Below are positions 1,329 to 39,036 of a stretch of DNA of 39,036 bases, piece by piece. Under the pieces are notes generated by a model. It saw only the letters and a list, made by a program, of their open reading frames with translations, ran no database searches and was not told the DNA's origin. A program made the translations under genes and the position numbers. The stretch is from a virus, in the IMG/VR virus record IMGVR_UViG_3300045988_153924; one strand, written 5' to 3'. The stretch's first letter is position 1, and each line of letters starts with the position of its first letter.

Positions 1329-2009
1329 CTACAGTTTTCTTTTTATCGACCGAACCAATCCAAAAACCCGAATACGCAAAACATTTTCATTTTCAAAACG
1401 TCTGACAGGGTACATCGGATTTATCGAATGTAATTCAATAAAATTAGGACCGTATACGATTTTCTTAATAACGCCTTCTTCATCATCAATCAATACCACG
1501 GCATAACTGCCACTGTCTACCGATGACTGACATCTGACAAGTACAAGGTCACCTTCTTCAAACTTCGGATACATACTGTCGCCCTTAACTGTTAAATATC
1601 TGTACTCTTGTCCGTCTTTTACGTCATCGTAGTCTGTCGGTTCATATCCGATAATTTCATTATCAGCAAGACAACCCGTTCCGGCTGCAACAGAACCAAT
1701 AACAGGAATATTAACAAACTTTATATCATCTAACGGATATGTGTTTGATGGGGCAATTTGTTCAGCTTGCATTGGAACGTCATATCCCATAAGCCATGCT
1801 TCACTTACATTTAACGCTTTACCTAATATATATAGTTTATGTTGTCCAGGTTCTGATTTACCCGCCACATATTGACTTATATCGTTTCTGCCTAATCTCG
1901 TATTATTTTCTTTGCAATAAGGCTCTGCCAATCTTACTATATCAATCTGTTTTAAATTACGTTCTTTCATTAATTGTTTTAATCTAAGAGCAGTATTTGA
2001 ATTTTTCAA
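1329..2009 (-). CDS. CI-like repressor: N-terminal XRE-family HTH plus C-terminal S24 (LexA-like) peptidase
   Basis: An N-terminal HTH region followed by a GDSM serine motif and a downstream lysine; TTG start at 2007..2009 with an AGGAGG RBS; divergent from the cro-like gene. Confidence 0.85.
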   Translation of the reverse strand: MKNSNTALRLKQLMKERNLKQIDIVRLAEPYCKENNTRLGRNDISQYVAGKSEPGQHKLYILGKALNVSEAWLMGYDVPMQAEQIAPSNTYPLDDIKFVNIPVIGSVAAGTGCLADNEIIGYEPTDYDDVKDGQEYRYLTVKGDSMYPKFEEGDLVLVRCQSSVDSGSYAVVLIDDEEGVIKKIVYGPNFIELHSINPMYPVRRFENENVLRIRVFGLVRSIKRKL

Positions 2010-3469: not shown

Positions 3470-3552
3470 TATAATCACCTCCTTCCGAGATGATTATAGC
3501 ACAAATGGTTAAAAAATACAATCGACATGTATAAGAAAGGAAAATTTAAATT

Positions 3553-4347
3553 ATGGAAGAATTAAAGGTATTTGAAAATGCAGAGTTCGGCTCTGTAAGA
3601 ACAACAACAGTAAACGGAGAGATTATGTTTGTCGGTAAGGATGTGGCGGGAATACTTGGGTATAGCAATCCTCGCAAAGCTTTAGCGGACCATGTTGATG
3701 AAGATGACAAAACGGATGGGGTAACGATTCGTGACTCCATCGGTAGAGAACAAAATCCGGTATGTATCAATGAATCGGGTTTGTACAGTCTTATCTTATC
3801 AAGCAAAATGCCGAATGCGAAGAAGTTTAAGCATTGGGTTACGGCTGATGTATTACCGGCTATACGCAAAACAGGAATGTATGCGACCGAAGAACTATTG
3901 GAAAATCCCGATTTGGCTATACAGGCGTTTACGGCATTAAAATTGGAGCGAGAGAAAAATAAGAAACTAAACACCACTGTTAAAGTTCAAGAACAGCAGA
4001 TTATGGAACTTCAACCAAAGGCGTCATATTATGATTTAGTTTTAAATTGTCCCGATTTATTATCAGTCACTGTCATAGCAAAGGATTACGGTAAGTCGGC
4101 AAAATGGTTAAACAATTTCTTAAAAGAACACCAGATACAGTTTAAGCAAGGAGGGATATGGCTGTTGTATAAGGAATATGCTGAAAAAGGCTACACAAGT
4201 ACAAAGACGCATACTGTAAACGGAAATGACGGCAAGCAACATTCTAAAGTAAATACATATTGGACACAAAAAGGCAGATTGTTTATTTATGCATTGTTAA
4301 AGAGCGAGGGTATACTTCCGATAATGGAACAGGAGCAGATCGCTTAG
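3553..4347 (+). CDS. Phage antirepressor (Bro-N/ORF6N N-domain plus KilA-C/AntA C-domain)
   Basis: The N-terminal MEELKVFENAEFGSVRTTTVNGEIMFVGKDVAGILGY is Bro-N-like; the C-terminal half is KilAC-like. Confidence 0.8.
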   Translation: MEELKVFENAEFGSVRTTTVNGEIMFVGKDVAGILGYSNPRKALADHVDEDDKTDGVTIRDSIGREQNPVCINESGLYSLILSSKMPNAKKFKHWVTADVLPAIRKTGMYATEELLENPDLAIQAFTALKLEREKNKKLNTTVKVQEQQIMELQPKASYYDLVLNCPDLLSVTVIAKDYGKSAKWLNNFLKEHQIQFKQGGIWLLYKEYAEKGYTSTKTHTVNGNDGKQHSKVNTYWTQKGRLFIYALLKSEGILPIMEQEQIA

Positions 4348-4403
4348 TACAAAGTAATAGGACAAAAAATGAAATACATAGATTAAAGCAGGAGGTGGAG
4401 ATT

Positions 4404-4637
4404 ATGGAGGCGGAAAAGACCAAAAAGGCAAGAAAGCCGAGAAAGCAACCTAAAGTACATGTTGAAGTGGTAGGAAGTTGGCAAGACAGACCTGCTTATG
4501 AGCGTTTTCAGCATTGGAAACCTCATATAGAAAATATGTATCATATGCTTGGGTACGGTGATGTAACGGTTGAGCCGTCGCAGGAGATGATTGACGAGTA
4601 CAATGCTATTCAAGCAAACAAAGAAAAAGGAGCTTAA
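4404..4637 (+). CDS. Hypothetical basic protein (77 aa)
   Basis: AGGAGGTGGAG RBS immediately upstream of the ATG. Confidence 0.6.
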   Translation: MEAEKTKKARKPRKQPKVHVEVVGSWQDRPAYERFQHWKPHIENMYHMLGYGDVTVEPSQEMIDEYNAIQANKEKGA

Positions 4638-4644
4638 TGCTCCG

Positions 4645-4797
4645 ATGATGGGACAAGCTCACAGGATAAAGAGAGGTAAACTAATGAACACAATAGGAAT
4701 TGCACTGATTAGTTTCAGTATCGGACTAATCATAAGTTGGAAATTGGCAGAAAGGGACATAAAAAATGCTAAAAAGAAAACCAAAAACAGAGAATGA
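4645..4797 (+). CDS. Small membrane protein (one transmembrane helix IGIALISFSIGLIISW)
   Basis: ATG with an AAGGAG RBS 12 nt upstream; an alternative start at 4684 has a GAGAGG RBS. Confidence 0.4.
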   Translation: MMGQAHRIKRGKLMNTIGIALISFSIGLIISWKLAERDIKNAKKKTKNRE

Positions 4798-4907
4798 GAA
4801 AACGGAAGAATATTTTCACAGAGAAGTATTTCCGATGATTAACGCATTCGCCAAGGAGTGCAGAGGACACGCAAAGCAGAAAATAACGGTGAAAGGAATA
4901 TTTTCAA

Positions 4908-5078
4908 ATGAACAAATATGTAGTAATGACGGGCAGAGATGATGTTGTGGTTTTAAACGCTGATGAGAACAAGTCGGTTAAGGCATACATAGCAAAAGGA
5001 TATGGGATAACAAATCGTATCAAGTCAAAGCACCCGCTTGAAATGAGTGTTGCAAAGATTATCAGTGGAGATAATTAA
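4908..5078 (+). CDS. Small hypothetical protein (56 aa)
   Basis: AAAGGAA RBS 10 nt before the ATG; below the ORF-track cutoff. Confidence 0.35.
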   Translation: MNKYVVMTGRDDVVVLNADENKSVKAYIAKGYGITNRIKSKHPLEMSVAKIISGDN

Positions 5079-5084
5079 ACGGCT

Positions 5085-5348
5085 ATGACAAAATACGAAT
5101 TTGACGATTGGGCGTGCATAGACGATGACTTTGCTTGTCGTGATGACGACTTCGCCTGTATTGATGATGATTGGGCGTGCATAGATGATGATTGGGCGTG
5201 CATAGATGATGATGACGCAGTATGCGACGATGAACGCGACGGACTTACGGAAGAAGAAGCCGACGCATACGAAAAGGGAAAGCGTGGTATGACCTATTCA
5301 AAGAGGTATTGCAGTTCCCGTACAGTTACGGATTATCTTGGGAAATAG
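5085..5348 (+). CDS. Highly acidic heptad-repeat protein: five tandem (W/F)AC(I/R)DDD units followed by an acidic tail
   Basis: The translation shows the tandem repeats directly; the underlying 21-nt DNA repeats lie at 5109..5213. Confidence 0.6.
   Translation: MTKYEFDDWACIDDDFACRDDDFACIDDDWACIDDDWACIDDDDAVCDDERDGLTEEEADAYEKGKRGMTYSKRYCSSRTVTDYLGK
5109..5213. repeat. Five tandem 21-nt repeats (the last two identical) encoding the WACIDDD heptads
   Basis: Repeat units read directly from the sequence. Confidence 0.8.
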
Positions 5349-5398
5349 TTTCGGCATACAGACAGCCTATAAAATATCAGAATTAGGAGGTGAGAAGT

Positions 5399-5548
5399 GT
5401 GGCAGATGAGAAAACGGCGGAAATACTGAAATTGTATAGCGATTTAACACCGAATGAAAAGCATTTGGTAGGTGTTTTCGTAAATGCGATGATACTTAGT
5501 CGCAATAAAAATGACCGTCAGAGCGGCAACTCAATAACGGTCAAATAA
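5399..5548 (+). CDS. Small hypothetical protein (49 aa)
   Basis: AGGAGGTG RBS 8 nt before the GTG start; below the ORF-track cutoff. Confidence 0.45.
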   Translation: MADEKTAEILKLYSDLTPNEKHLVGVFVNAMILSRNKNDRQSGNSITVK

Positions 5549-5555
5549 CAAAAAC

Positions 5556-5576
5556 ACATAGATTATTAATCTATGT
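5556..5576. promoter_or_regulatory. Perfect 10-1-10 palindrome ACATAGATTAtTAATCTATGT about 33 bp upstream of the first replication-module gene
   Basis: Palindrome read directly from the sequence; no loop and no T-run, so it looks like a protein-binding site rather than a terminator. Confidence 0.4.
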
Positions 5577-5608
5577 CAACATTATACCACAGAAAGGAAC
5601 GAAAATCA

Positions 5609-6877
5609 ATGATAAAGATAAATGAATTACAGCTTGAAAATGTCAAGCGAATAAAGGCGGTAAAACTTGAGCCGGCACAGAATGGTTTAACTGTTATCGG
5701 AGGAAAGAACGGACAGGGTAAAACTTCTGTCATAGACAGTATAGCGTGGGCGTTGGGCGGTGACAAATACCGTCCGTCACAACCACAGCGTGACGGTTCG
5801 GTCATTCCGCCTATTCTTCATATTGAATTGTCAAACGGTTTAATTGTAGAACGTAAAGGCAAGAACAGTGCATTGAAAGTAATAGATCCGAACGGTAACA
5901 AAGGCGGTCAACAGCTTTTAAACGAATTTATCGAACAATTTGCACTGGACTTGCCGAAATTTATGCAAGGCACATCAAAGGAAAAAGCAGAGATACTACT
6001 TCAAGTAATCGGTGTCGGAGAGCAGTTATATGAAATTGAAAACAGAGAAAAACAACTTTACAACGAACGTACCGCAATCGGCAGAATAGCAGACCAAAAG
6101 AAGAAGTTTGCGGAAGAAATAGTCGATTATCCCGAAGCACCGAAAGAACTTATTTCAATCTCGGAACTTATCCTAAAGCAACAGGAAATACTTGCAAAAA
6201 ACGGCGAAAACCAACGTAAACGTGAAAAGGCACAATCACTTTTAAAGCGCTCCGAAGATTTAAAAGCACAGATTACAAATCTTCAATCACAACTTGATGT
6301 TGTACTTTCAGATCTTGAAATTGCACAAAAATCGGCACTTGATTTGCACGACGAATCAACCGAAGAACTTGAACAGAACATCAAGAACATTGAGCAGATA
6401 AACATTAAAGTTCGTGCCAATATGGATAAAGACAAAGCCGAAGAAGAAGCGAAAGAATACAAGGACAAGTATGACGAGCTTACCACAGCTATTAGTAACG
6501 TTCGTAAAGAAAAGACGAATTTATTGAAGAATGCAAATCTGCCACTTGATGGATTGTCGGTTGAGGACGGCGAGCTTACATACAAAGGCTTTAAGTGGGA
6601 TAACATGAGCGGTGCGGAGCAGATGAAAGTATCAACGGCTATTGTCAGAAAGCTCAATCCCGATTGTGGTTTTGTACTTCTTGATAAGTTGGAGCAAATG
6701 GATACCGACACATTAAAAGAGTTCGGTGAATGGCTTGAAAAAGAGGGATTGCAGGCAATAGCCACAAGAGTAAGTACAGGTGAAGAATGCAGTATCATCA
6801 TTGAGGACGGATATTCAAGCGAATCAAGCACAGCAACACCTAATGCGACAAAAACTTGGAAAGAGGGAGAATTTTAA
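5609..6877 (+). CDS. SMC/SbcC/Rad50-like AAA ATPase (phage recombination ATPase)
   Basis: Walker A GGKNGQGKTS near the N-terminus, a long coiled-coil middle, and a C-terminal ABC signature/D-loop region; AAAGGAAC RBS. Confidence 0.75.
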   Translation: MIKINELQLENVKRIKAVKLEPAQNGLTVIGGKNGQGKTSVIDSIAWALGGDKYRPSQPQRDGSVIPPILHIELSNGLIVERKGKNSALKVIDPNGNKGGQQLLNEFIEQFALDLPKFMQGTSKEKAEILLQVIGVGEQLYEIENREKQLYNERTAIGRIADQKKKFAEEIVDYPEAPKELISISELILKQQEILAKNGENQRKREKAQSLLKRSEDLKAQITNLQSQLDVVLSDLEIAQKSALDLHDESTEELEQNIKNIEQINIKVRANMDKDKAEEEAKEYKDKYDELTTAISNVRKEKTNLLKNANLPLDGLSVEDGELTYKGFKWDNMSGAEQMKVSTAIVRKLNPDCGFVLLDKLEQMDTDTLKEFGEWLEKEGLQAIATRVSTGEECSIIIEDGYSSESSTATPNATKTWKEGEF

Positions 6878-8007
6878 TGGATATTACAAGCGGAAAAATC
6901 GAATCGGCACAAAAAGTAATCATATACGGCCCTGAGGGAATAGGCAAATCAACGTTTGCGTCGAAGTTCCCAAGTCCTCTGTTTTCGGATACAGAGGGCA
7001 GTACAAAACATATGGACGTAAGACGTTTGCCTAAGCCTACCTCTTGGACATTGCTAAAAGAGGAAGTAGCATATGTCAAAGCAAATCCGACTGTATGCAA
7101 AACATACATTATAGATACATTTGATTGGGCGGAAAGACTTTGTATTGCAAAGATATGCGCAGATAATAACAAAAAAAGTATTGAGGATTTCGGATACGGT
7201 TCGGGATATGTTTACGAATTAGAGGAAATAGGCAGATTTTTAAATTCACTTGATGAATTGATTGAATTGGGTATCAATGTAGTTTTGACGGCTCATGCAC
7301 AGTTGCGCAAATTTGAACAGCCGGACGAAATGGGAGCATATGACCGTTGGGAGTTGAAACTCGGCAAAAAAACAAGTTCGCAGATTTCACCTATTTTGAA
7401 AGAGTGGGCGGATATGATTTTATTTGTCAATTATAAAACATTTTCGGTTGCGACAGATGACAAAGGAACAAAACATAAGGCACAGGGCGGTACAAGAACA
7501 ATGTACACCACACACCACCCTTGTTGGGACGCAAAGAACCGTCATAATCTTCCGGACGAAATGCCGTTTGAATATGAACGAATTGCACATTGTTTTAAAG
7601 ATAATGCACCGACACAAACGGTTACACCGACAGTCACACCACATATAGAGCCGACTGTTTCACAGGTAGTCACACCACCACAAAAAACGACAGTTGCACC
7701 GCCTGCACCGCCGATTGACAACAACGTATCAGACGAAAGAAAAGAATTTGATACACCGGCACAATCGTTTGATATGCCGAACGGAAATATACCGAAAGCA
7801 TTGTCGGATTTAATGCAGATTAATAAGGTAACAGACGCAGAAATCAGACAGGCAGTTGCGTATAAAGGATATTATCCCGAAGATACACCGATAGAAAATT
7901 ACGACGTTGATTTTATCAACGGTGTATTGGTAGGAGCATGGAATCAAGTATTTGAGATTATAAAGAAAATGAGAAATGAGAATGTATTTCAAGGAGGTAA
8001 CGAATAA
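6877..8007 (+). CDS. Sak4-like (AAA_24) RecA-fold single-strand annealing ATPase with a Pro/Thr-rich linker and an extra C-terminal domain
   Basis: IYGPEGIGKSTFA Walker A typical of AAA_24/Sak4; TAATG overlap with the upstream gene; GAGGGAGA RBS. Confidence 0.75.
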   Translation: MDITSGKIESAQKVIIYGPEGIGKSTFASKFPSPLFSDTEGSTKHMDVRRLPKPTSWTLLKEEVAYVKANPTVCKTYIIDTFDWAERLCIAKICADNNKKSIEDFGYGSGYVYELEEIGRFLNSLDELIELGINVVLTAHAQLRKFEQPDEMGAYDRWELKLGKKTSSQISPILKEWADMILFVNYKTFSVATDDKGTKHKAQGGTRTMYTTHHPCWDAKNRHNLPDEMPFEYERIAHCFKDNAPTQTVTPTVTPHIEPTVSQVVTPPQKTTVAPPAPPIDNNVSDERKEFDTPAQSFDMPNGNIPKALSDLMQINKVTDAEIRQAVAYKGYYPEDTPIENYDVDFINGVLVGAWNQVFEIIKKMRNENVFQGGNE

Positions 8008-8496: not shown

Positions 8497-10068
8497 ATGG
8501 AATTAAGACCATATCAAAATGAAGCTAAATCAGCCGTTTTCCGTGAATGGGAGAACGGCTGTAATAAAACATTGCTTGTTCTTCCGACAGGTTGCGGAAA
8601 GACAATAGTATTTGCAAAAATAACAGAAGAATGTGTGAGAAACGGTCAGCGAGTGCTGATACTTGCACACAGAGGTGAGCTTTTGGAACAAGCGGCAGAC
8701 AAGATTATGAAAACAACAGGTTTAGGCTGTGCAACGGAAAAAGCAGAAGAAAGTTGTATCGGCAGTTGGTACAGAGTTGTTGTAGGTTCGGTACAAACAC
8801 TTATGCGTGAAAAACGTTTAAATCAGTTCCAAAGCGATTATTTCGATACAATCATCATAGACGAGGCACATCACTGCATATCAGACAGTTACAGACGTGT
8901 ATTAGACCACTTTTCAGAGGCAAAGGTGCTTGGAGTCACTGCAACACCCGACAGGGGCGATATGAAAAATCTCGGACAGGTTTTTGAAAGCCTTGCATAT
9001 GAGTATACACTTCCTAAAGCTATTAAAGAGGGATATTTAAGTCCAATAAAGGCTCTGACAATTCCGTTAAAGCTTGACCTAACAGGAGTGGGAACACAGG
9101 CGGGCGACTTTAAATCAAGCGATTTAAGTACGGCACTTGATCCGTATTTGTATCAGATAGCCGATGAGATGACAAAACACTGCAAAAACAGAAAAACGGT
9201 TGTATTTCTGCCACTTGTAAAGACGAGTAAAAAGTTTAGAGATATTCTGAACGAAAAAGGTTTTAAAGCGGCGGAAGTAAACGGCGAAAGCAAAGAAAGA
9301 GCAGAAATATTAAATGATTTTGAAAACAATAAGTATAATGTGTTGTGCAATTCAATGCTTTTGACAGAGGGTTGGGATTGTCCCGATGTGGATTGCGTTG
9401 TCATATTAAGACCTACAAAAGTACGCAGTTTGTACAGTCAAATGGTAGGACGCGGAACAAGACTTGCACCGAATAAGGACCACTTACTTTTACTCGATTT
9501 TTTATGGCATACGGAACGACACGAACTGTGTCACCCCGCACATTTGATTTGCGAAAATGAAGAAGTTGCCGTAAAAATGACGGAGAATATCGAAAATGCG
9601 GGTTATCCTGTTGACATAGAAGAGGCAGAGGAAAAGGCAAGCGAAGATGTAGTTGCACAAAGAGAAGAGGCACTTGCAAATCTTCTTGCGGAAATGAAGA
9701 AACGTAAGCGTAAATTGGTTGATCCTCTGCAATTTGAAATGAGCATACAAGCCGAAGATTTATCGGGATATGTACCGACATTCGGTTGGGAAATGTCACC
9801 TCCGTCAGACAAACAAATAAAGGTACTTGAAAAATACGGAATATTCCCTGATGAAATAGATAACGCAGGTAAGGCAACCAAACTGCTTGAACGATTGGAG
9901 AAAAGACGTGTGGCAGGACTTACAACTCCAAAGCAAATACGCTTTCTTGAAAGTCGAGGTTTTCAGCACGTCGGTGTTTGGGAGTTTGAAAAAGCAAAAA
10001 ATCTTATTGACAGAATTGCTGCAAACGGTTGGCGAATACCGTCGGGGATAAATCCGAGTGAATATTAA
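8497..10068 (+). CDS. SF2 DEAD/DEAH-box DNA helicase
   Basis: LPTGCGKT motif I, DEAHH motif II, SAT-like TATP, and QMVGRGTR motif VI. Confidence 0.85.
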   Translation: MELRPYQNEAKSAVFREWENGCNKTLLVLPTGCGKTIVFAKITEECVRNGQRVLILAHRGELLEQAADKIMKTTGLGCATEKAEESCIGSWYRVVVGSVQTLMREKRLNQFQSDYFDTIIIDEAHHCISDSYRRVLDHFSEAKVLGVTATPDRGDMKNLGQVFESLAYEYTLPKAIKEGYLSPIKALTIPLKLDLTGVGTQAGDFKSSDLSTALDPYLYQIADEMTKHCKNRKTVVFLPLVKTSKKFRDILNEKGFKAAEVNGESKERAEILNDFENNKYNVLCNSMLLTEGWDCPDVDCVVILRPTKVRSLYSQMVGRGTRLAPNKDHLLLLDFLWHTERHELCHPAHLICENEEVAVKMTENIENAGYPVDIEEAEEKASEDVVAQREEALANLLAEMKKRKRKLVDPLQFEMSIQAEDLSGYVPTFGWEMSPPSDKQIKVLEKYGIFPDEIDNAGKATKLLERLEKRRVAGLTTPKQIRFLESRGFQHVGVWEFEKAKNLIDRIAANGWRIPSGINPSEY

Positions 10069-23976: not shown

Positions 23977-24417
23977 ATGGCTGAAAGTGTTAAACCGAGA
24001 GGTAATCAACTTTGTTCCGGTACATTCGGTAAACTTTGGATTGACGGAAGTCTTGCCTATGAAGTGTATAAGTTCGAGGCAAAGGAAAAGACAAATCGTG
24101 AGAGTGTAAGTTTTGCCGGCGATACAACGAACGATTCAAAGCTTATGGGCGTTGACTATGAATTTTCATATACCGTACGAAAGGTATATTCAAGAGGTAA
24201 AGAAATAGCCGACGGACATAAAAAAGGTAAAGATACAAGACATACGTTGGTGGCAAGACTTGAAGATCCTGATAACGGCGGTTATGAAACAATTCAACTT
24301 GATAATTGTTGGTATAATGATGTGTCACTTATGAATTTTGAAACCGGTAAGATAGTTGAAGAAGAATTCAGCGGCGGTTTTACCGACTATGACCTTACAT
24401 CTACAATGAATGCGTAA
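23977..24417 (+). CDS. Tail tube protein (XkdM-like)
   Basis: Size and synteny. Confidence 0.7.
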   Translation: MAESVKPRGNQLCSGTFGKLWIDGSLAYEVYKFEAKEKTNRESVSFAGDTTNDSKLMGVDYEFSYTVRKVYSRGKEIADGHKKGKDTRHTLVARLEDPDNGGYETIQLDNCWYNDVSLMNFETGKIVEEEFSGGFTDYDLTSTMNA

Positions 24418-24435: not shown

Positions 24436-24816
24436 ATGGATAAGAATACAAAAATTACTCTTGCGGAACTTATTAAGCGTAAGGAGCAAGTGCTTGAGGC
24501 AAAGAAAAACGTAAAAAGAGCGAGAGTTTATGTAAAAAGCCTTGGTGGCGAGATTGTTATAAAAGCACCGACAAAGTCGCTTGCAACAGAATCGGCGGAA
24601 ATGGAAAAGGACGGTGACGCTCACCTTGTTTATGAGTGTGTTGCCGAACCGGATTTACATTCAAAAGAACTTCAGGAGGCATACGGCTGTACATATCCCG
24701 AAGAAATCGTAGAAAAGATTTTTGACGACGGCGAAATCTCACCGATTGCAATGGAGTGTATGAAACTTGCGGGATATATCGACAGTGTAAAACTTGTTGA
24801 AGAAGTAAAAAACTGA
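24436..24816 (+). CDS. Tail assembly chaperone (XkdN-like)
   Basis: Size and position between the tube and tape-measure genes. Confidence 0.7.
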   Translation: MDKNTKITLAELIKRKEQVLEAKKNVKRARVYVKSLGGEIVIKAPTKSLATESAEMEKDGDAHLVYECVAEPDLHSKELQEAYGCTYPEEIVEKIFDDGEISPIAMECMKLAGYIDSVKLVEEVKN

Positions 24817-25049: not shown

Positions 25050-27488
25050 TTGCAGAATAAAAGTTCGATAGTTCTGAATATGAACCTTAATGCGAGTGGA
25101 TTTGCCCGAGGGATAAAAAGTGTAATCGGCAGTGTCAAAAATATGAATGAGTCGATGAAAGACGCAACGAACAGCGCCTCAAAGATGTCTTCTGTAATGA
25201 AAGGTATAGGGAGCAGTGCCATAAAAGTCGGAAAAGGTTTAGCGGTGGCAGGAGCGGCTGCGGCGACTGCCGTAACGGCTTTGGTTTCAAAGTCTGTCGG
25301 TGCATTTGCTGATTATGAACAACTTACGGGCGGTGTAGAAACGTTGTTCGGAGCAGGCGGAAGAAGTGTTGAGGAATATGCACAGAGTGTCGGTAAAAGT
25401 GTTTCTGATATTCAAGGGAAATACGACAGTTTGATGAGTGCGCAAAATGTTGTATTAGAAAATGCAAATAAGGCATATATGACTGCCGGAATGTCGGCGA
25501 ATGAATATATGGATACTGTTACGGGATTTTCAGCGTCATTAATATCAAGCTTAGGCGGAGATACAAACAAGGCGGCGGATTACGCAAATTCGGCATTGGT
25601 TGATATGTCCGATAATGCAAATAAAATGGGTACGGATATGGAGTCCATAAAAAATGCGTATCAGGGATTTGCAAAACAGAATTATACTATGCTTGACAAC
25701 TTGAAGTTAGGTTACGGCGGTACACAAGAGGAAATGAAACGACTTCTCAGTGACGCAGAAAAACTTACGGGACAGAGGTACGACATTTCATCATTTGCCG
25801 ATATTACACAGGCTATTCACGCAATTCAAACTCAAATGGATATTACCGGCACAACCGCAAAAGAGGCAAGCACGACAATAAGCGGATCGTGGGGGTCACT
25901 GAAAGCGGCATTTCAAAACGTGTTGGTGGGACTGACAACAGGCGGAGATATGTTTGACCAAAGTTTAGACGCATTGATTAATACAGCCGTAACATTCGGA
26001 CAGAATATTATACCCGCCATTAAAGGTGCTTTGAGTGGTGTCGGCTATTTAATTGAGGGGTTGGCACCGGTAATCGGCGAAACAATTCCACCGTTAATTA
26101 ATGACCTCGCTCCTACATTGGCAAACAGTGCCGTATCGCTTATATCGTCTTTGGTAAATGGTCTGACACAGAACGCAACGCAATTTTCAGAGTGCTTGAG
26201 CAATATGATTATTGTAGCGGTCGCCGGTATTTCAACCGTAGTGCCACAGTTATTAGATGCGGCATCAAAAATAGTCAGCAATTTAATGCAAGGATTAACT
26301 AATTCTATGCCTCAAATTGTGAACGGAGCAGTAACTTTGATAGAGGGGTTAGTCAATGGATTAGTGAACAACATACCATTGCTTATTATGGGAGCCGTTC
26401 AGCTTGTTGCGTCATTAGCTAACGGTTTGATAGCAAATTTACCGAGAATAATAGATGCAGGTGTAAATCTGATAACAGGAATTGTTAGCGCGTCATATTC
26501 GATGATGCCCCAAATTATACAAAACGGAATGCAGTTGGTCGTAAACTTAGCAGTCGGACTTGTACGGGCAATTCCGCAGTTGATAGCGGCTTTACCGCGA
26601 ATAACGGGTGCAATCGTAAAAGGATTTAAGTCTGTTAATTGGTTTGATTTGGGTTTGCAGTTGATAAAGTCAATTTGGGAAGGTATCAAATCAATCGGAA
26701 GCGAGATGTGGAACGGAGTCAAAGAAAAAACGTCAGAATTATGGGGCGGTGTTAAAAATGTTGTATCGGAAAAACTGAACAACATAAAAAGTGCCTATGA
26801 CGCGCACGGCGGTGGACTGAAAGGTGCTACATTTGCGGCAATAGAGGGTGTCAAGGAATACTACAGGACAGGCTATGACGCAATTAATCAATTAACAGGC
26901 GGTAAGCTCGGCGAGGTTGTCAATGCAGTCGGTGAAAAGATGGAAGTCGTAAAAGGTAAATTCAGCGAAGCGTTTGGCAATGTGAAAAACACCGTAATGA
27001 CTATTTTTGAAAACATTAAAAATGGTATTACTGAAAAAATCAGTGCGGCGGTGAACAAAGTCAAGGAGATATTCGGCAGTATTGCCGACAAGGTATCGGA
27101 AGTTTGGGGTAAGATTAAAGGAATTATCAAAGCGCCTAAGATTGTACAAAAAGGTACGGTAAGTATAGCCGGTGTCAGTACACCGATTCCGAAACTTGGA
27201 CTTGAATGGAATGCAAAAGGCGGTATTATGACACGTCCGACAGCGTTCGGATATGCAAACGGAAAAGTTCAAATGGGCGGAGAGGCAGGAGCAGAGGCGA
27301 TACTTCCGCTTAGAACATTTTGGAACAATTTAAGTCAATACATAGCCGAAAGCAACAAAGGCGGCAATACTATAACGAATGAAATTAAGATAGTTATAAA
27401 CGCCGACAACAAAACCACCGATGAAATCGCCGACGACGTTATAAACGTAATAGTTCCTAAAATTCAAAAATGTATGGCAAATATGTAG
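25050..27488 (+). CDS. Tape measure protein
   Basis: 812 aa, Ala/Gly-rich helical repeats; TTG start with a GGGGGTG RBS. Confidence 0.85.
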   Translation: MQNKSSIVLNMNLNASGFARGIKSVIGSVKNMNESMKDATNSASKMSSVMKGIGSSAIKVGKGLAVAGAAAATAVTALVSKSVGAFADYEQLTGGVETLFGAGGRSVEEYAQSVGKSVSDIQGKYDSLMSAQNVVLENANKAYMTAGMSANEYMDTVTGFSASLISSLGGDTNKAADYANSALVDMSDNANKMGTDMESIKNAYQGFAKQNYTMLDNLKLGYGGTQEEMKRLLSDAEKLTGQRYDISSFADITQAIHAIQTQMDITGTTAKEASTTISGSWGSLKAAFQNVLVGLTTGGDMFDQSLDALINTAVTFGQNIIPAIKGALSGVGYLIEGLAPVIGETIPPLINDLAPTLANSAVSLISSLVNGLTQNATQFSECLSNMIIVAVAGISTVVPQLLDAASKIVSNLMQGLTNSMPQIVNGAVTLIEGLVNGLVNNIPLLIMGAVQLVASLANGLIANLPRIIDAGVNLITGIVSASYSMMPQIIQNGMQLVVNLAVGLVRAIPQLIAALPRITGAIVKGFKSVNWFDLGLQLIKSIWEGIKSIGSEMWNGVKEKTSELWGGVKNVVSEKLNNIKSAYDAHGGGLKGATFAAIEGVKEYYRTGYDAINQLTGGKLGEVVNAVGEKMEVVKGKFSEAFGNVKNTVMTIFENIKNGITEKISAAVNKVKEIFGSIADKVSEVWGKIKGIIKAPKIVQKGTVSIAGVSTPIPKLGLEWNAKGGIMTRPTAFGYANGKVQMGGEAGAEAILPLRTFWNNLSQYIAESNKGGNTITNEIKIVINADNKTTDEIADDVINVIVPKIQKCMANM

Positions 27489-37593: not shown

Positions 37594-39036
37594 TTATTTA
37601 TAATAGATTTTCAAGAAGATATCGCCCTCGGGAGCGGATTTTTCACGTTTATATTCAATTTTTTTCACAAAATTTTTAAGAATGGAATTTTTTTCTGTTG
37701 CTGAAAGAGAGTTATAATTAGTGAGAAGTTCACGCAAAAGGGGAAGTCGTTCTTCGATGGAAGATGTATCCACAAGTTTAAATTTTTCACGTTCCTGTGC
37801 TATCGTGGCATTAATTTTTTTTCTTCTATCCGAAATTGCGTTATTGCGTTCAAGGAAAAGTTCTTTTGTATAGACTTCCTGTTCGAGCAAGTCATACAGA
37901 CGGAGTTGTTGTTTATCAAGTTTTTTTAATTCTGTTTCCAAAGTGGCTATTGTATCAAGGCAGGAAAGTTTATCTTTATTATGCGATTGACGGATATTTT
38001 TCAAAGACAATTCAATATCTTTAAATTCCTTTGTAAGCACTTCAAATACTTTATCTTCTACAATGCTCAATGCAGATGCCTTATTACAACCGAGTGTACG
38101 GCAACAAAGACGGTATTTTTCAACAGTTTCGTTAGAAGTATTGATAACTATTGCCCGACCGCAATTAGCACACTTTAAAAGCCCTGCAAACGGATTTTGC
38201 AACGTGCCTGTACGCATAGGCGGTTTATATTTCAGATTTATAATATCTTGTGCTTTATTGAACGTGTTCTCGTCAATTATCGGCTCGTGCAGTCCGGGAA
38301 CATATAACCAATCATCTTTACTCGTTTTTTCTTGCGTATTTTTGCCTTTAACAGACTTTGATTTGTTCCACACTATTTTACCTATGTAAGTATGATTTCG
38401 GAGCATACGGGCGATTGTGGTGGGGTGGAGCGGTGTATTTTTCTTGCTCAAGACACCCAAATTTGCAAGCTGACGGCTTATTGAAGTAATACCCATACTT
38501 TGATTTACGTACATATCAAATATCATACGAACATATTTTGCCTCCGGTTCATATACTTCCAACGTGTGCTTTTTATTTATTACGGCATTTCGATAACCAA
38601 ACGGAGCACCCGACACAAAACAACCGTCGTTGATTGATTTGATACGTCCTCTGTTCATTCTGCGAGTGATGAATTTAAGCTCCTTACGAGCCATAAACAT
38701 CTCAAATTCACTGTAATCTTCGTCGTACTCGTTGTTGAGGTCATATATTTTTTTGAGTGTAATAATTTTCACGTCATTTTCTTTAAGAACGTCAAAGATT
38801 TTTTCACTGTCTGCGGCACTTCCGCGCCCTAAACGGTCAAGGTCAATACATAATACCGCATCATATATGTGCGAGGGAATAGCGTCAAGTAGTTTCAGCA
38901 TTTCCGTTCTGTTGTATAACATTCCTCCGCTTATCACTTCTTCAAATATGTCAATGACCGTTAAATTATTGTCCTTTGCATAAGAAAGAAGAATTTCTTT
39001 GTGACGTTCAAGTGTTTCAAGCGGATTGTTTTCGTC
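37594..39036 (-). CDS. Large serine recombinase (integrase), 5'-truncated by the window end; the N-terminus continues as in 1..155
   Basis: About 490 aa; an N-terminal resolvase-type catalytic domain (..YLRKSRAD..., DAIPSHIYDAVLCIDLDRLGRG), a recombinase domain, a Cys-rich zinc ribbon (CANCGRAIV...CC) and a C-terminal coiled coil. Confidence 0.85.
   Translation of the reverse strand, partial: DENNPLETLERHKEILLSYAKDNNLTVIDIFEEVISGGMLYNRTEMLKLLDAIPSHIYDAVLCIDLDRLGRGSAADSEKIFDVLKENDVKIITLKKIYDLNNEYDEDYSEFEMFMARKELKFITRRMNRGRIKSINDGCFVSGAPFGYRNAVINKKHTLEVYEPEAKYVRMIFDMYVNQSMGITSISRQLANLGVLSKKNTPLHPTTIARMLRNHTYIGKIVWNKSKSVKGKNTQEKTSKDDWLYVPGLHEPIIDENTFNKAQDIINLKYKPPMRTGTLQNPFAGLLKCANCGRAIVINTSNETVEKYRLCCRTLGCNKASALSIVEDKVFEVLTKEFKDIELSLKNIRQSHNKDKLSCLDTIATLETELKKLDKQQLRLYDLLEQEVYTKELFLERNNAISDRRKKINATIAQEREKFKLVDTSSIEERLPLLRELLTNYNSLSATEKNSILKNFVKKIEYKREKSAPEGDIFLKIYYK

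Follow-up and report, generated by a model that had tools for sequence, protein, structure and literature searches.

The DNA examined here, to which we refer as "the window", is the whole 39,036-nucleotide stretch of IMG/VR virus record IMGVR_UViG_3300045988_153924. In the early region of this prophage a CI-like repressor, a Cro-like ORF, an antirepressor and several small ORFs precede the gene that is the subject of this report, a short ORF for a highly acidic protein, which is followed by genes for an SbcC-like ATPase, a Sak4-like annealing protein, a helicase, a primase and RusA (Table 1). The location between the antirepressor and the replication genes given in a preliminary description of the window, which was made from the sequence alone, is thus correct. 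Between the integrase and the repressor, the minus strand (276-853) also carries ORFs of 114 and 76 aa, whose counterparts in the related loci L001 and L044 show DUF4258 and YokU-like (weak) similarities; this pair may be a toxin-antitoxin-like unit within the lysogeny module.

Table 1. Features of the acidic gene and of its surroundings in the window
Feature	Position	Strand	Remarks
CI-like repressor	1329-2009	-	
Bro-N/ANT antirepressor	3553-4347		
Upstream 56-aa ORF	4908-5078	+	Ends 6 nt before the ATG of the acidic gene
Acidic heptad-repeat ORF, 87 aa	5085-5348	+	ATG start; residues 1-66 are family sequence, residues 67-87 (RGMTYSKRYCSSRTVTDYLGK) an out-of-frame reading
Five 21-nt units, (W/F)AC(I/R)DDD heptads	5109-5213	+	Four units in most relatives
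Heptad unit 1, WACIDDD	5109-5129	+	
Heptad unit 2, FACRDDD	5130-5150	+	
Heptad unit 3, FACIDDD	5151-5171	+	
Heptad unit 4, WACIDDD	5172-5192	+	
Heptad unit 5 (extra), WACIDDD	5193-5213	+	DNA an exact copy of 5172-5192
Degenerate sixth unit, DAVCDDE	5214-5234	+	
Degenerate terminal unit with the most conserved family motif (DAVCDD-ERDGLTEEEADAYEK)	5214-5275	+	From alignments and AlphaFold
Slippery heptamer G_GGA_AAG	5276-5282	+	Site of the 1-nt deletion; X_XXY_YYZ register, codons 65-66 GGA AAG
Family C-terminal domain in the -1 frame, AWYDLFKEVLQFPYSYGLSWEIVSAYRQPIKYQN + TAG	5282-5386	+	Intact; predicted helical hairpin, pLDDT ~88
Downstream 49-aa ORF, GTG start	5399-5548	+	Strong Shine-Dalgarno sequence AGGAGGTG at 5385-5392
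SbcC-like ATPase	5573-6877		
Sak4-like (annealing) protein	6856-8007		
Serine integrase	37594-38937		

The translation of the acidic ORF is MTKYEFDDWACIDDDFACRDDDFACIDDDWACIDDDWACIDDDDAVCDDERDGLTEEEADAYEKGKRGMTYSKRYCSSRTVTDYLGK, and the preliminary description had seen in it an 87-aa product with five tandem heptads encoded by 21-nt repeats, the last two of them identical, and with an extreme negative charge. The ORF itself and Tandem Repeats Finder agree with the first of these statements: a 21-nt period was detected at 5102-5213 (5.3 copies, score 110), and this array outscores every other tandem array of the window. The DNA of the fourth and fifth units is the same throughout, and the product has 29 acidic (D+E) against 10 basic (K+R) residues, for a net charge of -19, a pI of ~4.05 and a D+E share of 33%; between residues 7 and 52, acidic residues occupy 22 of 46 positions and basic residues only two. 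Seven Cys residues occur alongside the many Asp residues. A separate 21-nt tandem repeat lies within the helicase gene (9639-9678, 1.9 copies, score 52). Since the fifth heptad unit is missing from all 34 of the other fully aligned loci, it is a recent 21-nt duplication. The preliminary description had allowed for collapsed or otherwise misassembled repeats, but the array is no assembly artefact, because alleles with five heptads are present in several independent assemblies (P0001, P0086-88, P0104, P0117, P0005) and a typical read exceeds the 105-nt array in length. The variation in repeat number for which it proposed to look is evident among the close relatives, which have one (P0107, P0085, P0090), three (P0112), four (most of them), five (the window, P0001, P0086-88, P0104 and P0117) or about seven (P0119) heptads.

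Comparisons among the repeat units and among related loci support the view that 5085-5348 is a real coding gene. Units 1-4 differ from one another at 38 sites, distributed as 3, 7 and 28 over the first, second and third codon positions, and the codon differences between them are synonymous in 22 cases and non-synonymous in 7. For the repeat half of the gene, 32 intact alleles from related loci give a pN/pS of 0.13, and for the C-terminal (helical) half one of 0.33, as compared to 0.06-0.07 in the neighbouring genes; judged by these ratios, the acidic protein is under purifying selection that is somewhat more relaxed than in its neighbours and that is strongest in the N-terminal array, the part that the frameshift allele described below has kept. 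Such selection at the protein level counts against the notion that the repeats work as DNA, i.e., as iterons or a replication origin beside the replication module, with the ORF being incidental. The 21-bp period would correspond to two helical turns, and the replication genes do start just downstream of the array, but the units are identical at only 12-16 of 21 positions, save for the pair formed by units 1 and 4 (19/21) and the recent duplicate, and distant homologues maintain the amino-acid pattern on unrelated DNA and elsewhere in the genome. With differences concentrated in this manner at third codon positions, the DNA-level conservation of units that marks iterons and origin repeats is missing, and we regard a role as DNA as exceedingly improbable.

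The acidic gene belongs, by sequence comparison, to a rare and phage-restricted family of proteins from phages, prophages and satellites of gut Clostridia. A search of 5.8 billion proteins returned 34 relatives and a profile search 58, and an exhaustive HMMER scan of 1.84 billion representatives yielded 44 clusters (50% identity) at E <= 0.001. True members are all 60-120 aa long, with a median net charge of -16 and 29% D+E; the few long HMMER matches are unrelated low-complexity repeats. The host genus is Hominilimicola: one RefSeq copy is named "hypothetical protein [Hominilimicola sp.]" (Oscillospiraceae, Clostridia), and another copy resides on a Clostridia MAG. None of the family members found carries an informative name or a Pfam domain. 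Scans of the window protein and 19 relatives against Pfam, PHROGs and PADLOC gave nothing above noise, PDB sequences searched by profile yielded nothing beyond a chance match (E = 1.4), and with the AlphaFold model Foldseek retrieved nothing from BFVD and nothing from the PDB at E <= 0.001 (a chance match had E = 8.8), all of which is in keeping with the earlier impression that the protein resembles no common family. Likewise, tblastn with P0009 and P0036 against 50,697 GenBank phage records produced no match, and in a megablast search with positions 3500-8000, all that GenBank phages shared was a short stretch within the antirepressor gene, in two Streptococcus phages.

From the N-terminus to the C-terminus, members of the family consist of a variable N-terminal segment, one to seven heptads, a terminal unit that serves as a linker, and a helical region. 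The heptads follow the consensus [F/I/W/L/Y]-[A/S/T]-[C/V/I]-[I/V/C/Y]-D-D-D, a pattern of the form phi-small-phi-phi-D-D-D in which "small" denotes a small residue. The terminal unit, D-x-V-C-D-D-x-R-D-G-L-T-(P)-E-E-x-x-x-Y-x-x-E, carries the invariant and near-invariant columns of the family alignment; in its DxVCDDxRDGLTxEE motif the D, G, L and E hardly vary, if at all, from one family member to another, and the AlphaFold models place this motif as the N-cap and beginning of a long helix. The helical region has conserved aromatic residues and often ends with P-I-K-Y-Q-x at the extreme C-terminus, even at ~40% identity. When an intact member was modelled with AlphaFold2 from a 34-sequence alignment, pLDDT was below 50 over most of residues 1-28, ~50 in the remaining repeats and 88-89 at residues 50-80, with helices at 49-70, 72-75 and 79-85, and a second run with a longer natural variant reproduced the pattern of low confidence in the array and high confidence in the tail. 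The array is accordingly predicted to be disordered, with the reservation that low pLDDT does not prove disorder, and the C-terminal region to fold as a helical hairpin, which is, according to the models, the only part of the family that is both confidently folded and widely conserved. In a different subfamily, P0048, P0052 and P0056 diverge or are truncated directly after the Y-x-x-E-x-K-E motif, which hints at repeated loss or replacement of the C-terminal domain at the same boundary. We also observed that a small Cys-rich protein (..YIDADKL..ADVVEVKHGEW..CPYCGAKMDG) is encoded upstream of the acidic gene in L039 (4464-4817) and L041 (681-977), and that P0073 is a natural chimera of the N-terminus of this Cys-rich protein and the C-terminal half of an acidic-family protein (VCDD..DGLT..PIKYQK), which points to modular shuffling.

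We translated and aligned the DNA of 35 related loci, of which IMG/VR supplied 33. A 93-aa protein with four heptads and the tail AWYDLFKEVLQ[F/Y]PYSYGLSW[E/G]IV[S/L]AYRQPIKYQN is encoded by 32 of these. The window copy departs from most of these relatives by two changes, namely the extra 21-nt unit and a 1-nt deletion at an A-rich junction, where the family sequence GAAAAG-GAAAAA-GCG (or GGAAAA) has become GAAAAG-GGAAA-GCG. As a consequence of the deletion, the product described earlier stands only in part: residues 1-66 are family sequence, and the last 21 residues, from R67 onwards, are read out of frame, a frameshift that the preliminary description had missed. The helical domain of intact members is therefore absent from the zero-frame product of the window and lies in the -1 frame, where its 34 aa are identical to those of intact alleles and are conserved in distant homologues. 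The intact counterpart of the window allele is P0117, a protein of 100 aa with five heptads. Deletion of a nucleotide within GGGAAAAG automatically creates the slippery heptamer, and the zero-frame codons across the junction are AAG GGA AAG CGT. Ribosomes that slipped by -1 at this site would produce the junction peptide ...AYEKGKAWYDLFK, i.e., ...EKGK-AWYDLF..., which is the sequence of the L034 protein. The family codon 58 (5277-5279 in the window), directly before the junction lysine, is a hypervariable position among close relatives, where it codes for E, G, K, R or A (EKEK, EKGK, EKKK, EKRK and EKAK) in a motif that is otherwise invariant.

The frameshift junction of the window is by no means confined to it. 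P0092, an 80-aa protein with four heptads and the same junction, is represented by 184 contigs (214 index blocks) and is commoner than any intact sequence listed (50, 37, 21 and 14 contigs); the prophages that contain it are otherwise intact and represent two different immunity regions. Because the loci with the GGAAA junction form one clade on both flanks, this junction probably had a single origin, and it is now found with at least four N-terminal and three tail haplotypes, all of them also known as intact alleles. Further independent 1-nt deletions at the junction have given GAAAA (L036, P0003, P0090) and GAAAG-GAAAAA (P0099, P0103), making three such deletions at the A-rich junction, each of which leaves A_AAG before the -1 frame. 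DNA was read for six loci with the junction of the window, namely the window itself and L044-L048, and in each of them the -1 tail is undamaged and exactly that of intact alleles. The heptamer is not conserved as a route of expression: the frameshift alleles are one clade plus the independent events, and 27 of 37 scored loci have GAAAAA in frame, so that no shift is needed. GGGAAAG occurs in the window at chance frequency (3 found, 3.95 expected). No stimulatory RNA structure was detected after the slip site, the 5270-5360 segment folding at -15.1 kcal/mol (z = +0.73 relative to shuffled sequences); the lambda G/GT site, reportedly since Levin et al. in 1993, may need no stimulatory element. 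A search of this phage's candidate tail-chaperone ORFs for a slip site of the G/GT type, as a positive control for slippage in this host, found none: the ORFs at 23977-24417 and 24436-24816 are in the same frame, with TAA TAA between them and no in-frame slippery heptamer, and from their sequences the usual G/GT frameshift arrangement seems to be missing from this phage. The tape-measure gene (25050-27488) follows these two ORFs. Lesions of other kinds were also seen in the C-terminal domain, including a +1 C insertion in L001 (~6200; CAGTATCCCG), a TGG-to-TAG nonsense mutation in L004 (~6230, on a 118-kb Clostridia MAG contig) and P0127, and a 47-nt deletion plus a 1-nt deletion in L036. Taken as sequence comparisons, the facts at the junction would fit a tolerated and freely recombining lesion or a maintained switch between short and long products alike.

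The acidic gene is flanked by two small ORFs. The upstream 56-aa ORF is conserved alongside it both in L004 and in this phage lineage, and translational coupling of the two is likely. Downstream, the 49-aa ORF shares its frame with the family-frame stop TAG (5384-5386); in three protein clusters (P0012-P0014) the stop has been replaced by Q, Y or L to give 145-aa fusions, and in P0007 a deletion has fused the acidic protein to the downstream ORF. The acidic protein and the 49-aa product may therefore act together; an AlphaFold model of the natural fusion P0012 gave no confident packing (pTM 0.30). The 49-aa ORF itself has a pN/pS of ~1.1 and N-terminal indels among relatives. Distant members of the family occur in varied settings: a prophage accessory region near YopX, HNH and ParB genes (L039), a site upstream of terminase near RtcB and ProQ-like genes (L041), a small integrative element in which the gene stands between the repressor/Cro pair and a DUF927 primase (L042), and a group of unannotated genes (L043). 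No neighbour is conserved across these four loci, which is typical of mobile accessory genes and provides no functional assignment. In L042, an element with a tyrosine integrase and the DUF927 primase, an unrelated hyper-acidic 59-aa ORF (MIYRAEFEDDEIEVFDCDDDIEAMEEAEDLEADHGELY...; 4803-4982) lies beside the family member. The early or accessory position in phages, prophages and a satellite-like element, the lack of a fixed neighbour and the variation in repeat number fit, without proving, a host-directed accessory or anti-defence gene.

The acidic family shares features with several known systems. Ocr (T7 gp0.3) and ArdA are, like the window protein, small, early and highly acidic products of mobile elements, and their strong negative charge has its equal here (net -19 and 33% D+E, with a family median of -16), but they are rigid folded dimers with a DNA-like charge geometry (PMC3439906, PMC2731889), whereas the acidic part of the window protein is repetitive and predicted to be disordered, and neither this protein nor its 19 relatives have a Pfam match. 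A rigid DNA mimic of the Ocr kind, the analogy drawn in the preliminary description, finds no support in the two AlphaFold runs, and the Asp spacing that this description proposed to compare with the periodicity of DNA phosphates has no fixed value that could be derived from an array with pLDDT below 50. With a flexible protein in place of a rigid one, the anti-defence or DNA-mimic idea is still a reasonable hypothesis. TifA (Orf65 of Enterococcus phage phi47), an inhibitor of type IV restriction enzymes, is another small acidic protein of a Firmicutes phage and has anti-restriction activity; it contains 21% D+E, has no repeats and has a predicted compact fold that its authors compared with other domains (PMC11322646). 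No similarity of the acidic family to TifA was detected.

The nearest precedent appears to be Gp44 of phage SPO1, as an analogy and not a homology. In Gp44, an acidic domain built of repeats, disordered and 57% D/E, mimics ssDNA and binds the beta/beta' subunits of RNA polymerase (PMC8208478). Like the intact members of the acidic family, Gp44 is a protein from a phage of Gram-positive bacteria (Bacillota) in which a folded domain is combined with a disordered acidic repeat segment nearly devoid of basic residues, and its proposed mode of action is that of a decoy for nucleic-acid-binding surfaces. Gp44 differs in being a 27-kDa protein with an N-terminal DNA-binding domain, as compared to the 60-120 aa and C-terminal helical hairpin of the acidic family, and the family in turn has strict heptads with four hydrophobic or small residues each. 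No Gp44 homology emerged from tblastn with P0009 and P0036 against the 50,697 GenBank phage records, a collection that may not hold SPO1. For the junction, the model is the lambda G/GT site, where GGGAAAG is the slip site and ribosomes stay in the zero frame ~96% of the time (PMC3296357); G_GGA_AAG has been described as highly shift-prone in E. coli (PMC5009743). The heptamer of the window is identical to that of lambda, lies in the correct register and is followed by an open and conserved -1 frame, and the short and long products would share their N-terminus, as in lambda and in cases of a "saviour indel plus compensatory frameshifting" (PMC3296357, PMC5009743). The differences are that the heptamer of the window came from a deletion, that most relatives have a single uninterrupted ORF, and that no stimulator was found.

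With these comparisons in mind, the reading toward which we lean, tentatively and at somewhat less than even confidence, is that the acidic protein is an early inhibitor directed at the host, a flexible polyanionic decoy composed of arrayed motifs and a helical domain. Its Asp triplets would imitate the phosphates of a nucleic acid or the acidic tail of a protein, and the hydrophobic residues between them would add multivalent contacts, strand-like in form, to a basic groove with which a host protein binds DNA or ssDNA; candidates for this protein include RNA polymerase, nucleoid proteins, recombination nucleases and nucleases of restriction or defence. The helical domain would serve as an anchor or oligomerisation module. 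Judged by its reading frame, the window copy has as its main product the acidic array followed by 21 out-of-frame basic residues, and the helical domain can be made only if ribosomes slip by -1 at the heptamer; heptad copy number and the frameshift would then tune the valency of the protein and the ratio of short to long product. This reading draws on the hyper-acidic nature of the family, on selection at the protein level, on the combination of a predicted disordered array with a folded tail, on the early or accessory context, on the intact -1 tail and wide occurrence of the frameshift junction, and on the precedents of SPO1 Gp44 and the lambda slip site. Weighing against it are the circumstantial nature of the genomic position, the lack of homology to characterised inhibitors in the sequence comparisons, the chance frequency and automatic origin of the heptamer, the missing stimulatory structure and the other C-terminal lesions of relatives.

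The decoy reading has to be weighed against the possibility, a doubtful but serious one, that the window copy is broken and dispensable, the deletion having inactivated the gene, the 87-aa product being functionless and the allele hitch-hiking in a prevalent prophage or host lineage. The frameshift takes out precisely the only confidently folded and most conserved part of the protein, stimulatory RNA structure is absent, the GGAAA loci form one clade on both flanks as would be the case in clonal spread, and the other independent C-terminal lesions (L001, L004/P0127, L036 and P0006/8/10/11) also fit a decaying dispensable gene, those of L001 (+1 nt), L004 (nonsense) and L036 (deletion) in particular. 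Harder to reconcile with a dead gene are the standing of the frameshift allele as the commonest single allele on record (184 contigs), the strongest purifying selection falling on the very array that is retained, the presence of the junction on at least four N-terminal and three tail haplotypes with a -1 tail almost without frameshift-specific lesions, and the occurrence at one junction of three independent 1-nt deletions that all leave A_AAG. The opposite and, in our estimation, unlikely proposal is that the frameshifted junction is an evolved expression switch in an arms-race locus with heptad copy-number changes, the product being a multivalent disordered anti-defence decoy of a new type. 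According to this proposal, loss of one nucleotide from the A-run, recurring as a "saviour indel", would make the acidic array the main product, and low-level -1 slippage would supply a few per cent of full-length protein, thereby dosing or hiding a C-terminal domain that is sensed by host defence or costly in lysogeny.

Other explanations concern the array itself. The alternation of an Asp triplet with a hydrophobic tripeptide recalls the DDDIPF tail of SSB (PMC5872125), which also has an Asp triplet followed by hydrophobic residues, displayed in several copies on a disordered segment, and the gene lies directly upstream of the recombination/replication module in this lineage, so the array could be imagined as a set of SSB-tail-like short linear motifs that titrate host proteins of genome maintenance, to the advantage of the neighbouring Sak4/ATPase recombination module. 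The heptad motif has another hydrophobic pattern, however, and is not part of an OB-fold protein. In solved SSB-Ct complexes the free C-terminal carboxylate matters, and the heptad motifs, being internal and repeated, lack one; moreover, recombination genes do not adjoin the distant homologues, and a phage SSB with this kind of tail did not turn up (FTPGSF is the C-terminus of the 158-aa neighbour), which leaves this idea improbable. A still fainter chance attaches to an acidic zipper of the coiled-coil type, with W/F/L at a, I at d and Asp at e, f and g, which would pair with a basic helix of its target, for the hydrophobic a and d positions are in heptad register but position 3 is hydrophobic too, the Asp-rich, beta-branched composition disfavours helices, and neither of the two AlphaFold runs formed a repeat helix (residues 1-48). 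The metal-binding inhibitor entertained in the preliminary description, for which the seven Cys and many Asp residues and the fairly well conserved Cys of the VCDD motif could be cited, has fared worse and is now very improbable: no set of Cys residues is common to the whole family, Pfam zinc or calcium motifs are absent, and in distant members the heptad Cys gives way to V, I, L or M (position 3 is C in 45 cases, V in 37, I in 36, L in 10 and M in 8), so that this appears to be a hydrophobic position and not a conserved ligand.

If the acidic gene of the window is only a decaying accessory gene, the value of these comparisons lies in a correction of annotation, the true family product being 93-100 aa in length and not 87. 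The widespread frameshift allele on the heptamer of lambda is a testable case of compensatory or programmed frameshifting outside the tail-chaperone genes, and the natural allelic series, with one to seven heptads, with or without the helical domain and with fusions to the downstream ORF, provides ready variants. If the protein is indeed a flexible polyanionic decoy, phage proteins for counter-defence or host takeover would gain a new sequence family, one that uses an array of short acidic-hydrophobic motifs in place of a folded, DNA-shaped surface, in phages of the gut Clostridia of the genus Hominilimicola, hosts that are abundant in the human gut and have barely been studied.
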